A DNA stretch of 64,000 nt from Candidatus Gottesmanbacteria bacterium (GCA_963790805.1 CAWBPL010000002.1:640696-704695), one strand, 5' to 3'. Counted from the stretch's first letter, positions 49,501 through 54,231 are shown. Translations and numbers: made by a program. Notes: generated by a model not told the origin, from the letters alone.

Positions 49501-52500
49501 GAAGGCTGGTTGCTGATAGAGTTCACCGGCGCTGGTCGCGAGATTATTGGTAGTATTTAATACCTGCAGGAGATTATTGACGGTCACAGAATTTCTTAGA
49601 TCGTTCGGTGACGTTAATTGTGTGAGGGTAGAGTAGAGAGAATAGTTTGAGGATTCTGCCCAGAATTGTGTTGTTGAGGCGCCATTGTTTGTTCCTGCTA
49701 TTGCAAGTGTTGCTCCGTTGTTGCAGCTGGTTGAACTGTTATCATATCCTACACACGGCGTTCCAGCAACAGAAATACCGATTGCATCATTTGCTCCAAA
49801 TTGAGTGCCGCTATCATCTGTCTTGGTTGTATTGTTTGTATTGTCGTAAAGATCCAAGACCGTATCACTGTCACTTCCAATTACCGAAATTCCTCCCGTG
49901 TGTCCTGATCCATCAATAGTACCGACATAAATATATTGATTTTTATCATCGAGAGTTACTGCAGATACGGTGTTCACAGTTGCTCCCGCCGATCCGCTGC
50001 CTAATAGTTTTTGATAGGAATTAGCTCCGGTGACGCCGGTTATGCGGGATGCAGTATGGTTCTGCAGTGCACGGAGACCGACCTCATACATATGTCGTAC
50101 TTGGCCGGCGCTGAGCGCTTCAGATGTGACAAACGGTTCATCTATAGAGCCGCGTAAATAGTTCGCCGGATTATTTGAGGCGGCACTCAAGTCGGCGCCT
50201 ATAGTGAGAGCCACACCGCTGCTGTTTAAATCGTTGGTTTGGGCTGTTGATCCAACCAGAACTCCATCGAGATAGAGATACTGCATGTTATTTGCGTTAT
50301 CAAATACTCCGACAAGATAGTGCCAGTTTGTCGTATCGTTGAGGCTCGCACCTGTTGCATCAGTAGCTGAGGAACCGTTTACCGTGCGGAACGTCGGTAC
50401 GTTGGTAGGACTAAAGAATAAGCTAAACGCCTGATCTGGATTCGCCGCTGCGCCATACTTTGCAATGATTGTATCTTGCTGGCTGCCTGCAGCTTCGCGT
50501 TTGACCCATGCGCCGACCGTCAGATTACCCGTTGTTGTGTTGAAATTCGTATCGTTTGTACAGTTACCGCTAGAGCCATTATCAGAACAGAGATAACTTG
50601 AGCTATTTGAACTTCCGAAATCAATGCCGGTACCCCGAACACCTGTCGCGGAAAACGTCGGGCTTCCTTTGCTGGTGAGTGCCCCTCCTTTTACTGATTT
50701 ATCGAGAATTGCCCCATTTCCTCCGGAGGTTTCAACGAGCGGCCACATGCCGCGAATATCACCTATCATTTCCTCGGTAATGTAATCTTTCCTATAGTAT
50801 TTGACTGATCCTTTTGTTTCATTGCCCACCGATGTATTTAAAACGCTTAAGCCGTTGGTGTGGGCGACGTAAATGGTGGGGGATTTGCCGTCAACCGTAC
50901 TTGTACCTTCGGTAACATAGAGTGCATCGGGTGCGGTATTAAATGTGAGAGCACTTGCTGATAGAGCAGGTGTTGTTGAGTTGCTGTAGCTTACAGAAGC
51001 GGCATTTGTATTGCCGCCCTTTGTGATAGCGGAATACCATACTTCCAGCTTTCCGTCCGTTGAATTAAGACCATAGACGTTACCGGCGTGATCGATCCAC
51101 ACAGATTTATATCCTTTAAAAGCAGCTCCGAGATTGGCAACAAGTGTCTGGTCAGTGTAATTAATGACGCTGATACCGCCGTTTGCGCCACCATTCGTTG
51201 CTGCTGCAATATACGTTTTTCCGTTAATAACCGTTGCTGATACATCATTTACCAAAGAGGAAGCAATGAGAAAATTTGTGAGATTACGGTAATTATATCC
51301 ATTTCCTCCATTACGGTTGCCGATATTACTGGTATAGTACGAAGGACCGTTCGTAGTATTTACCGTAAGCGCCTGGTCTCTTGTAAAGTCGATCATAAGC
51401 AATCCGGATGTTGAAGTTCCCGCGGTGCCTTCGCCGATATAAATAGTTCCGCCGACAGCATATACGCTGCTTGGAATTGTTCCCGTTACATCACTCCTGC
51501 CGAGTAGATTCTGAGTTCCTGAGCTGCTGCCGCCGCTTTGAAAATCCATCCAGAGCGTATTATCCTTGGCGTCATAGATATAAACATGTGCGTTTGCGGC
51601 AATGATGATGGCTTTTTCAGGAAATTCCCGCCGGCTTCCGCGCGTTGAGCTACTGAGCGTTTCGTTATACCAGCTTGATGCCTTGGCTCGATCGTCTTTG
51701 GTCCACATACCTCCATCAGTGTCTTTCGTTGTATCGTACACATAAATATCAGTTATGTTGGCAAGGGTTGTTAAATTCTTTTTTCCGTTTACCGTAATGT
51801 CGTTATGTCCGACGGAGAAGCGGGGGACCCCTGACGCTGAAGCTGTAAAAATATTTTGATCGCCTGTCTCATTAAGTATTGTTAATGCTTTTCCAGCTAT
51901 TGCGCCGGAAATATCCAGCTGACCAACTGGGGCGGTATTGTTTATACCGACTTTACCAAAACTATCGATATATAATCCAGCTAATCCTTTAGGTGAAAGT
52001 TGAATAGGTCCGGTAGTTGAAGAGCCGATAGTGAGTTTTGACATTGTTTGGGTTTGGATGATACTGTCTCCTCCGCGAAGTGTTAGTTGTCCTGATATAC
52101 TCGCATTTCCGTTGTCACCATTAAGAAAAATAAGTGCGCTGCCGGTTGCCGTGTATCCCTGATCTGATGCAAAGTTGGTGCTGCCCAGAGCTAAGCTTTT
52201 ATTTACGACAAAATAAGGATAAATAACATTTTCTCCGTTGGTTTGAGTAAATAACACAGTCCCGTTGGCGCCCATTTCGCCGGTTGAGCCGGTTGGGCCA
52301 GCTATTCCCGTTGACCCCGTGCTACCAGTCGTACCAGTCGGTCCCGTAACACCAGTACCTCCGGTTGTGCCGGTAGAACCCGTACTACCTGTTGTTCCCG
52401 TAGGTCCGATGAAGCCGGTACTTCCTGTTGAACCAGTAGAACCAGTGCTGCCTGTTGGACCAGTCATACCAGAACCACCAGTTGGTCCGGTCGCTCCCGT

Positions 52501-54231
52501 TGCACCTGTTGATCCGGATGGTCCGGTAAGTCCGGTGCTTCCGGTAGGTCCTTGTACTCCAGTTCCTCCCGTTGCTCCGGTCATGCCGGTGGGACCTGCA
52601 CTTCCCGTCGTTCCTGTACTGCCAGTCGAGCCGGAAGGACCTTCAAGTCCTGTCGCCCCAGTTGGTCCTTGTATACCGGTAGCTCCTGTTTGGCCCGTAG
52701 GTCCTTGTATACCGGTAGCACCGGTTGGACCATTAACTCCAGTTCCTCCCGTTGAGCCAGTCATACCGGTTGGGCCCGTGATGCCTGTTCCTCCGGTTGG
52801 ACCAGTAACGCCCGTTCCGCCTGTGGCACCGGTTGTACCTGTTGGTCCTTGTACGCCCGTTCCGCCTGTGGCACCGGTTGTACCTGTTGGTCCTTGTACG
52901 CCAGTTCCTCCTGTGGCACCCGTCCTACCAGTAGGTCCTTGTACTCCAGTTGCTCCCGTTGCTCCAGTAAATCCGGTCGGTCCTGCTGAACCGGTTGCGC
53001 CGGTAGTGCCTGTGGCGCCGGTTGGACCTGATAAACCTAAAATGCCGGTTGCGCCGGTAGATCCTGTTGGACCATTTTCACCGGTGGGTCCGGTACTTCC
53101 GGATGGACCGGATGGACCACTTGGTCCGGTTGGACCGAAGACACCTGCTTCGCCGGTTGCGCCGGTTTCACCGGTTGGACCCAATTCACCAACAATACCG
53201 GTAGGCCCCGAAGATCCTTGAGCCCCTGTGGGACCCGCCGGTCCGCTTGCTCCCATGTTTCCCGTAGGGCCGGTTGGTCCATAGACGCCAAAAAATCCGG
53301 TGCTGCCTGTTGGTCCACTTCCTCCAGCTTCGCCGACTGACCCGATTGGACCATATTGACCCGTAGGGCCAGTAGGGCCGAATACGCCATTTTGACCCGT
53401 AGGGCCAGTAGGGCCGGACGCTCCAACTATTTGTGAAGACTGATTGGAGCCGTTGTGATTTTGGTTTGATAAAAGCGGATTAGGTTCTGGAGTAGGGGCT
53501 GCTTTGGGTCCTGATGTATTTTGATTCTGTAATCCGATGATTTGATATATTAAAGCACCACTTCCAAGAAGTGCGATTAGAAGTAAAGCTCCAATAGCCA
53601 GTGGGGATAAGAATCGCTGCAATCCGCCAGACATAATTGGCGGTTTACCTGCGGGAATAACGATTGTTTCCTGCCCAGAAGAATCCGTAGTAGAAGGAAG
53701 ATTTTGATTAGACGGAGTATTTGGTGAACTAGGTTCTTGCGGAATCGTAGAAGATGTATCTTGAGGTGGAATATTTTCCGCAACTGCCTCTGAAATAATT
53801 GGAGAAGGAGAAATTTGTTTCGGAGCGTTTAATAAAAGGACGGCAGGAAGTAATCGATCGGACTGTCCCATCGAGGATTTTTGCTTTTCATCAGGAGATT
53901 TAGGAATATTCGCGAGGTATTGAGAAGGATCTTCGTTTACCCAGCCCTGATTTATCGCACAGCGAAAAAAGATACGGATTGTTGATAGCCGACGATTAAT
54001 GGTCGAGGCAGGTATATGGGCTAACGTCTGAGAACGCTTATAATTTTCCAATACATCAAGCGTAATTTGTTTCAAGATTCCCTTTTGTTCACTAGTGGAT
54101 TGTGGAAGCCCATTTGCTTGTGCTGATGTTGATATCCAATTAAAAAAATGGCGTATATCGGTGCGGTAATTCTTTTGAGTGATCTCAGAGGCTCCCTGAT
54201 CGCGCAAAAATCGAAATGAACGTACGTTCAA
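46501..54231 (-). CDS. Giant (2,576 aa) membrane-anchored fibre/adhesin-like protein: integrase-type SAM-like N-domain, TM helix, collagen-like G-X-Y region, fibre motifs, LamG-like domain
   Basis: A single ORF starts at TTG 54231. Its parts are: the N-terminal domain (nt about 53917-54231), the TM helix (53530-53613), the G-X-Y run (52261-53424), the LamG-like segment (about 50080-50750) and repeated G(N/K)VG(I/V)...P...L(D/H)(I/V) motifs. See the findings for details. Confidence 0.85.
52261..53424 (-). repeat. Collagen-like G-X-Y coding repeat (about 129 uninterrupted triplets by hand count)
   Basis: The run reads [13 protein letters not shown]...[10 protein letters not shown]. Thr dominates the Y position ([12 protein letters not shown]). 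It includes near-identical tandem 45-nt units encoding [15 protein letters not shown] around 52830-52930. Confidence 0.9.

Follow-up and report, generated by a model that had tools for sequence, protein, structure and literature searches.

The 64,000-nucleotide (nt) stretch of Candidatus Gottesmanbacteria DNA analyzed here (GCA_963790805.1 CAWBPL010000002.1:640696-704695; referred to below as the window) carries on its minus strand a giant gene whose product contains a long collagen-like repeat of G-X-Y triplets. From its 5' end, this single open reading frame (ORF) encodes an integrase-SAM-like domain followed by a single hydrophobic helix and a short linker; after these come the 130 G-X-Y triplets and a beta-rich ectodomain of 1,917 amino acids (aa 660 to 2576). 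The features of the gene and of its surroundings are compiled in Table 1.

Table 1. Position and support of the features described in this work (window coordinates; TM, transmembrane)
Feature	Position	Strand	Description and support
PMT_2-like gene	6622-8193		31.8 bits, above the 26.1-bit cut-off (PF13231)
PMT_2-like gene	9944-11242		25.6 bits, below the 26.1-bit cut-off (PF13231)
PMT_2-like gene	21876-23525		28.7 bits, above the 26.1-bit cut-off (PF13231)
PMT_2-like gene nearest the stalk	41008..42591	+	PF13231 E 5e-5, 23.9 bits, below the 26.1-bit cut-off; about 9-11 TM helices
Polytopic membrane protein	42602..44482	-	At least 9 TM helices, C-terminal TPR repeats; candidate GT-C-type or other envelope enzyme
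Three pilin/pseudopilin-like genes	44702..46493	+	Pfam N_methyl; convergent with the giant gene at its 3' end
Giant ORF, whole putative fiber protein	46501..54231	-	2,576 aa as listed, TTG start; longest ORF of the window
C-terminal tailspike-type domain	46555..46716	-	aa 2506-2559; Pfam K1-lyase_C E 4e-8, 34.1 bits, cut-off 27
Head module, beta-propeller-like domain and LamG/ConA-like jelly roll	49858..51750	-	aa ~828-1458
LamG part of head	50098-50580	-	aa 1218-1378; Pfam Laminin_G_3 E 4.6e-20
Collagen-to-head junction and ~100-aa module	51772..52254	-	Junction conserved (LFTQTN..IYPY.VVNKS...)
Collagen-like stalk	52255..53424	-	aa 270-659; translation, Pfam, composition; same position in 13 orthologous loci
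Near-identical 45-nt tandem units	52808..52951	-	3.2 copies, 91% matches (Tandem Repeats Finder)
Linker, membrane to collagen	53425..53538	-	aa 232-269; rich in N, Q, S and P
Single TM helix, putative signal anchor	53539..53607	-	aa ~209-231; hydropathy; conserved juxtamembrane motif
Integrase N-terminal SAM-like (core-binding type) domain	53944..54210	-	aa 8-96; PF02899 E 6e-9, 36.5 bits, cut-off 22.3
Out-of-frame remnant of the ancestral N terminus	54185..54313	-	Split from the main ORF by a 1-nt frameshift near 54215-54225

The collagen-like repeat

Translation of the giant ORF yields 130 unbroken triplets (390 aa), the only G-X-Y run of six or more triplets in the window, which contains no N. 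The original prediction, made from the DNA sequence, had placed 129 triplets at 52261-53424; the repeat is indeed real and uninterrupted and its coordinates were nearly correct, but the tract begins at 52255, the last triplets GAN-GTV being part of it, and lies on the minus strand, which had been left unstated. Its account of the composition and of the near-identical 45-nt tandem units was confirmed. The most frequent triplets are GPT (30), GST (17), GAT (15), GTT (7) and GGT (7), with threonine at 87 of the 130 Y positions and proline at 37 of the X positions, while only 8 of the 390 residues (2%) are charged. The 45-nt unit encodes GVQGPTG(R/T)TGATGGT, and 24 of the 1,144 27-mers of the stalk are repeated, at a 45-nt offset, most of the stalk being unique sequence. 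Pfam Collagen (PF01391) matched the tract with an E value of 4e-44 (148.6 bits; cut-off, 27.2 bits). A 318-aa ORF on the plus strand (52265-53221, PVGPV...) was rejected as a gene, being a spurious mirror image of the G-X-Y coding.

The glycine codons of the stalk are mixed (GGA 47, GGT 42, GGC 35, and GGG 6), as are those of threonine, indicating that glycine has been held at each third position against point mutation. The same feature also occupies the corresponding place in 13 orthologous loci, and the tract is accordingly neither a product of chance nor only a young repeat; judging from its codons, it is an old repeat that selection on glycine periodicity has preserved and that has acquired a few recent duplications. 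The GxT type of repeat is in itself ordinary and of a known kind in bacteria, where threonine at Y is the usual stand-in for hydroxyproline.

A flexible, mucin-like disordered spacer that forms no triple helix could have a similar composition, since the tract is of low complexity, with Thr, Ser, Gly and Pro abundant. GPT peptides in free form lack structure (PMC11923368), and AlphaFold2 (AF2) gave no confident structure in the regions neighboring the tract. A disordered linker, however, needs no glycine at exact third positions, whereas here glycine occupies 130 of 130 such positions with mixed codons. In orthologues its periodicity extends over up to 334 consecutive triplets with zero or one interruption, although the X and Y residues have diverged, and domains of the trimeric-fiber type flank the tract on its C-terminal side. 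We therefore regard a disordered spacer as very unlikely.

Architecture of the 2,576-aa protein

An exhaustive search of 1.8 billion representative proteins gave 634 relatives of the SAM-like N-terminal domain; such a search was needed to reveal the family, as a word-indexed search with the N-terminal region gave only 4 matches. The domain is predicted to be cytoplasmic. By hydropathy, the TM segment is the sole strongly hydrophobic helix; it is preceded by a soluble domain and there is no signal peptide, which places the stalk, C-terminal of this single signal anchor, in a predicted extracytoplasmic position.

Across the family, the N terminus consists either of the integrase SAM-like domain, which most members have and which is sometimes duplicated, or of one or two MerR/excisionase-type helix-turn-helix (HTH) domains (protein entries P0004, P0020, P0026, P0031, and P0094; locus L006). 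Whichever of the two is present, the TM helix that follows and its juxtamembrane motif (LLGxGAL..QIxGIR) are unchanged. The occurrence of two unrelated DNA-binding-type domains at one position suggests that selection acts on an interaction with DNA. Short versions of 463 to 531 aa also exist (P0122 and P0123), both ending in ...FNWW(I/L)IN and one of them (P0122) carrying the TM/juxtamembrane motif.

The ectodomain gave no match in a sequence search against the PDB. The junction at which it begins is conserved also in gene calls that start just before it; AF2 confidence is low there, as expected for an intertwined fiber, and the junction together with the following module of about 100 aa is probably fibrous and trimeric. 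For aa 660 to 1560, AF2 returned a confident core (approximately aa 990 to 1490) consisting of a beta-propeller and a jelly roll. The closest structures found for this core with Foldseek were trypanosomal trans-sialidases, which combine a propeller with a lectin domain (E 5e-11), and the receptor-binding (Hc) domains of clostridial neurotoxins; in the viral library, phage LamG structural proteins and tail-fiber proteins were retrieved.

The remainder of the ectodomain (aa 1561 to 2576) was modeled mostly at low confidence, again in keeping with an intertwined fiber, with a mean predicted local distance difference test score of 53; apart from one small domain, only the final ~70 residues were usable. 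The last ~72 to 90 residues superpose on the C-terminal domains of trimeric phage-type tailspikes and fibers, namely the Pam1 tailspike, the K64-1 depolymerase, the R2 pyocin fiber, the Sf6 tailspike and the K1 lyase, and the C terminus itself (...FNWWIVN) is conserved in 54 homologues. It is the K1-lyase_C match and these marginal tailspike fold matches, and nothing else, that suggest a trimeric protein.

Orthologous loci and stalk length

Homologues of the ectodomain (89) were all giant proteins of Patescibacteria/candidate phyla radiation (CPR) metagenomes (Microgenomates, Parcubacteria, and Gottesmanbacteria), with a best identity of 46%. The DNA was re-read at 33 GTDB loci and 2 metagenome loci. 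At 13 of them (L001 to L010, L014, L019, and L034), a collagen run ends exactly at the conserved junction, while the more distant members of the family have no collagen. Across these 13 loci, threonine is found at Y in 65 to 90% of the triplets and proline at X in 18 to 31%.

Stalk length varies widely among these loci: 72 triplets in L003, 118 in L014, at least 124 in L001 (where the contig ends), 200 in L008 (Gottesmanbacteria), 231 in L002, 298 in L034, 321 in L006 and about 282 to 397 in L009, L010, L005, L007, L019 and L004, each of which has 100-N scaffold gaps inside the repeat. Every orthologue has tandem duplications of its own. Their periods (36, 45, 54, 81, 90, 99, 108, 117, 126 and 243 nt) are without exception multiples of 9 nt, and copies with 100% identity occur. 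L002 and L019, whose heads are 85% identical, have 231 versus at least 358 triplets, and L003 and L007 (76% head identity) have 72 versus at least 350. In contrast, L010 and L034 (97% head identity) have colinear stalks of equal length (298 triplets) despite 11 to 18% nucleotide divergence.

From these comparisons, stalk length is evolutionarily labile across the family, in line with the suggestion of the original prediction that tandem units drive length variation: the number of repeats, which was to be compared among related genomes, is not invariant and goes from 72 to about 397 triplets over the 13 loci, with lineage-specific duplications. The sole close pair has equal stalks. Stalk length is thus, as far as this pair shows, not hypermutable on short time scales, and the stalk does not behave as a fast contingency locus at the divergence of L010 and L034. 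Exact-protein look-ups of four neighboring products and one metagenome scan, which returned two distant relatives only, yielded no contigs of the same population.

Many database entries of the family begin at an internal methionine that lies in the collagen or shortly behind it (MTGATG..., MGATGEPLFTQTDNLIYPY...), so that the anchor is lost (P0001, P0002, P0005, P0008, P0015, P0018, and P0023; the gapped loci are the six listed above), showing that gene callers truncated these proteins. In addition, many of the metagenome-assembled genome records (L001, L003 to L007, L009 to L022, L026 to L027, L029, and L031) are titled "uncultured Gammaproteobacteria/Pseudomonadales bacterium," which, on records with genes of the Patescibacteria type, looks like a placeholder or an error.

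Reliability of the sequence

A rival possibility is that the triplet number in the window is an artifact of assembly, the repeat having been collapsed or expanded; even then, the tract as such would be genuine. Assemblers do struggle with this repeat, as scaffold gaps lie inside the collagen in 6 of the 13 orthologous loci. The two closest relatives have much longer stalks (231 and at least 358 versus 130 triplets), the stalk contains near-identical 45-nt units, and four 1-nt indels within 3 kb just upstream point to an imperfect local sequence. On the other hand, the 1,170 nt of the stalk are in frame and without N inside a 7.7-kb open frame, the low number of repeated 27-mers means that most of the stalk can be placed by short reads, and both ends of the stalk align to the ends of the orthologous stalks. 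Gaps, moreover, need not hide sequence, as the 100-N gap of L010 corresponds to only 2 nt in L034. When the window stalk was aligned to those of L002 and L019 to look for a collapse, only the ends were alignable, the middle being too degenerate to decide. We consider an assembly artifact unlikely, but the frameshifts, the longer stalks of the closest relatives and the tendency of assemblers to break in the repeat call for caution about the exact triplet count.

The four indels are 1-nt frameshifts relative to intact orthologues, all within 54.2 to 57.2 kb. One affects the giant gene, whose ancestral start, conserved in orthologues, belongs to the remnant near 54277 and is out of frame with the remainder of the ORF. 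The orthologues in L002 and L003 read through in a single frame; the sequence upstream of the ancestral start is also conserved in these two loci. The other three (near 55586-55590, 56876-56890, and 57150) interrupt leuS (55387-57892, plus strand), which is an intact single ORF of 783 to 936 aa in the relatives L002, L019 and L003. The four frameshifts may represent a local sequence error or a real decay, in the case of leuS that of an essential gene. An alternative genetic code was rejected as an explanation for the leuS stops, because leuS is interrupted by frameshifts and code 11 gives an open frame over all 2,576 codons of the giant gene.

A model of the fiber

Taking these data together, we consider it likely that the repeat forms the stalk of a surface fiber of a CPR host (Microgenomates/Gottesmanbacteria-like), homotrimeric and anchored as a type II protein (N terminus in, C terminus out), and we read the protein as a stalked adhesin whose reach is set by the length of its stalk. 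The hydrophobic helix would act as a signal anchor, leaving the SAM-like domain in the cytoplasm and directing the whole chain beyond it to the outside. The tailspike-like C-terminal parts would trimerize and nucleate the collagen triple helix, which would zip from C to N as in other collagens, for which folding in this direction from a C-terminal nucleus is described (PMC11923368). The resulting stiff rod would carry the lectin-like, receptor-binding head past the wall and the S-layer, and the head, at the tip of the rod, would contact a host cell or a substrate. Stalk length, and with it reach, would shift over evolution by in-frame tandem duplication or loss of units whose length is a multiple of 9 nt.

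Since a collagen triple helix rises by 0.286 nm per residue, the 390 residues would form a rod of approximately 112 nm, so that the head is probably held about 110 nm off the cell. The stalks of the orthologues would by the same calculation span about 62 to 340 nm, which is on the order of the diameter of a CPR cell. The fact that the collagen of the orthologous loci always stops exactly at the conserved junction supports the model. A stalk bearing a globular C-terminal adhesin head is found in Pasteuria Pcl7 (PMC10987987), a trimerizing C-terminal domain in BclA (PMC10470788), and pili-like appendages are known to join CPR cells to their hosts (PMC7906910).

Several points weigh against this interpretation. 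The triple helix is deduced from the sequence and the folds were predicted as monomers, hydropathy was the sole basis for the topology, and the AF2 models of the junction and of most of aa 1561 to 2576 were of low confidence. The tailspike fold match is marginal (E 4e-3; root mean square deviation of 2.1 A over 72 residues). The head may be lectin-like and receptor binding, as assumed in the model, with a glycosidase as the alternative. As (GPT)10 is not helical when unglycosylated and only 2% of the stalk residues are charged, an unmodified stalk would perhaps be only marginally stable. Finally, the 1-nt frameshift lies 16 codons into the ancestral frame, and gene decay or a sequence error is possible.

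Chromosomal neighborhood and relation to phage fibers

The giant gene occupies a defined chromosomal slot. It is divergent from comEC (MBL part), comEC, comEA and leuS, which lie in this order on one side, and is followed on the other by the three convergent pilin/pseudopilin-like genes, only 7 nt separating the two stop codons. This order is kept in nine family loci (L001, L002, L004, L007, L008, L009, L014, L019, and L029), and the constancy of the slot argues against a prophage. With comEA and comEC on one side and pilin-like genes on the other, the whole region resembles a competence/pseudopilus neighborhood. The intergenic region between the giant gene and leuS (54314-55386) is 1.1 kb long and AT rich (about 34% GC); a scan of this upstream region for promoters and terminators gave sites no commoner than in shuffled sequence, and Rfam gave no match over the whole window.

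The composition of the head nevertheless raises the possibility that the gene encodes a phage or prophage tail fiber rather than a cellular surface protein. Relatives of the head module (aa ~828 to 1458) occur in 222 IMG/VR phage contigs, where the homologous proteins fall in PHROGs tail fiber families. That the contigs come from genuine tailed phages is shown by their terminase, portal, protease and central-fiber genes. The module is 25 to 46% identical to tail-fiber proteins of uncultivated phages (IMG/VR loci L036 to L115; examples are L054 3504-7976, L086 2385-5867, and L058 4821-7124). The C-terminal domain is of the tailspike type, the N-terminal domain is of the integrase type, and prophage tail fibers can hold collagen segments (PMC3368898). 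Against a phage origin of the gene as a whole stand the chromosomal slot between leuS-comEA-comEC and the pilin genes, which is constant in nine or more species-level genomes, and the N-terminal membrane anchor, present instead of a virion-attachment domain. Pfam scans of the window ORFs detected no virion genes, the module never had a collagen run within 5 kb in the 80 phage loci retrieved, and a tblastn search of cultured phage genomes with the head module gave no match. We conclude that a phage or prophage tail fiber is extremely improbable, and we retain the chromosomally encoded surface fiber as the preferred reading.

The glycan locus and the proposed glycosylation of the stalk

The first 44.5 kb of the window contain five genes of glycosyltransferase family 2 (GT2), four PMT_2-like genes (two above and two below the Pfam cut-off; all with about 9 to 13 TM helices), one YfhO-like gene and about nine further polytopic proteins, along with nucleotide-sugar (NDP-sugar) epimerases/dehydratases, aminotransferases and methyltransferases. 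The huge glycosylation locus that the original prediction had noticed next to the stalk is therefore present, with GT2, PMT_2-like, YfhO-like and sugar-nucleotide genes. The PMT_2-like gene nearest the stalk has orthologues in only two of the family loci, L002 and L014. Full-length orthologues of the polytopic, TPR-containing protein adjoin the family members L002 (18765-20756), L009 (14373-16223), L019 (20034-22073) and L018 (17260-19236), with a weaker match in L029, and members without collagen are among them. Its membrane domain has no Pfam or NCBIfam match, and an NCBIfam search with ten polytopic neighbors gave TPR matches only; the assignment of these neighbors to GT-C comes from their topology and from weak PMT_2 scores.

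About nine polytopic proteins of 430 to 600 aa encoded at 242-30901 are without a Pfam match. They include two groups of paralogues, 242/4273/18854 and 20503/27269/29519, the latter weakly linked to the PMT_2-like gene at 9944, and the set looks like an expansion of uncharacterized GT-C-like enzymes.

It had been proposed that the Thr-rich stalk is a BclA-like O-glycosylation acceptor for the neighboring PMT-like GT-C enzymes; the glycans would in that case stabilize or decorate the triple helix. The predicted topology places the stalk on the extracytoplasmic side, where GT-C enzymes act, and the window offers, besides the four PMT_2-like, one YfhO-like and about nine other polytopic proteins, a full sugar-nucleotide toolkit. 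The 87 threonines at Y are accompanied by only 8 charged residues that could provide stabilization of another kind. According to a passage in PMC11923368 that cites Bann 2000, (Gly-Pro-Thr)10 is a random coil unless its threonines are galactosylated, glycosylation rendering it helical, and the collagen-like regions of BclA are glycosylated (PMC11923368, PMC10470788, PMC8968730).

Other observations argue against this proposal. In bacterial collagens at large, threonine is the residue that predominates at Y, and most of these proteins are not known to be glycosylated (PMC8968730); its presence is thus no flag of a special glycosylation target. GT-C-like polytopic genes lie within 10 kb in 4 of the 13 collagen-bearing loci versus about 7 of the 22 collagen-less family loci, indicating no specific association of such neighbors with collagen. 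CPR genomes have many such GT-C-like enzymes, whose substrates are not known. The PMT_2 match nearest the stalk is under the Pfam cut-off (Table 1), and the sole glycosyltransferase of a collagen-like protein that we found documented, SgtA acting on BclA3 of C. difficile, is a soluble enzyme rather than a GT-C (PMC7157674). Stalk glycosylation by the neighboring enzymes is thus possible but rather doubtful, and we hold the same tentative view of threonine O-glycosylation in general, which could aid the stability of the stalk and which the sequence data neither support nor exclude.

Comparison with known systems

The protein shares with the BclA/Bcl exosporium proteins of Bacillus and Clostridioides a GPT/GxT-rich collagen-like region whose triplet number varies between lineages, as well as, by our model, the formation of a surface filament and a trimerizing non-collagen domain on the C-terminal side (PMC10470788, PMC8968730). 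In BclA, the triplet number is strain specific and tied to filament length (Sylvestre 2003, as cited in passages of PMC10470788 and PMC8968730). BclA proteins, however, have about 250 to 450 aa, with a 38-residue N-terminal domain that binds to BxpB on spores and a 134-aa C-terminal domain (PMC10470788), whereas the present protein has 2,576 aa, a TM anchor, a predicted cytoplasmic SAM-like domain and a 1,917-aa head, and belongs to a CPR lineage. The exosporium-targeting motif (LVGPTLPPIPP-like; PMC10987987), searched for as L[VI]GPTLP, has 0 matches in the protein, and no BclA-type C-terminal domain is detectable with Pfam, which finds Laminin_G_3 and K1-lyase_C in the C-terminal region. On these features, which are defining ones for BclA, the BclA-like label of the original prediction fails.

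In Pasteuria Pcl7 and streptococcal Scl1/Scl2, as proposed here, a collagen stalk projects a globular binding head that mediates attachment to the host (PMC10987987, PMC8968730). The Scl proteins have an N-terminal head and a C-terminal LPXTG wall anchor, while the present protein has the opposite polarity, with an N-terminal TM anchor and no LPXTG motif, and its head is roughly ten times larger and built of phage-type modules. With phage tail fibers and tailspikes, it shares the propeller/LamG head module, the C-terminal domain of the tailspike type and, by inference, the logic of a trimeric fiber. Prophage fibers of E. coli O157 include collagen-like segments (PMC3368898), which the 80 phage homologue loci lack, and the present gene differs from those of phage fibers in being chromosomal, syntenic and membrane anchored rather than virion attached.

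The topology of the protein is also that of the eukaryotic type II collagens XIII, XVII, XXIII and XXV and of the class A scavenger receptors (SR-A and MARCO), which have a cytoplasmic N terminus, a single TM helix, an extracellular triple helix and a distal, C-terminal ligand-binding part. This is an analogy only, as no sequence homology was detected, and the eukaryotic proteins have hydroxyproline and interrupted helices and are without a DNA-binding-type cytoplasmic domain.

Implications for CPR biology

No relevant literature was found on collagen-like proteins in CPR/Patescibacteria or on giant proteins with SAM-like domains. The combination of the host lineage, a type II anchor with a DNA-binding-type domain, a phage-derived head and a pilin/competence neighborhood was not found described in the literature searched.

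A bolder interpretation, which we consider unlikely, is that the fibers are a contact organelle of an undescribed class in the CPR: a fiber of 60 to 340 nm whose phage-derived head captures the host and whose cytoplasmic end, of the DNA-binding type, couples contact to an event on DNA. If so, this event could be membrane-tethered control of transcription, regulated release (as in ToxR/CadC or Notch) or a coupling to DNA uptake through ComEA/ComEC and the pseudopilins. Such fibers would then explain some of the "pili-like appendages" seen between CPR cells and hosts by cryo-transmission electron microscopy (cryo-TEM), with glycosylation of the threonines by GT-C enzymes as an added layer.

Independently of this, the family holds a lesson for users of databases: because the stalk disrupts both assembly and gene calling, most deposited copies are truncated and the family has been overlooked. 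For the biology of collagen, it offers a natural, putative GxT helix of 130 to 400 triplets that is nearly free of charge and that could serve to probe whether stability requires glycosylation of threonine. The more than five-fold difference in stalk length between lineages leads to the prediction that the length of the fibers in cryo-electron tomography scales with triplet number.

Little is known of how the ultra-small CPR/Patescibacteria episymbionts recognize their hosts and keep hold of them. Among CPR appendages, experimental support exists for type IV pili only, and unidentified "pili-like" filaments have been imaged by cryo-TEM (PMC7906910, PMC12206443). The fiber family described here would provide a concrete second candidate for this function.

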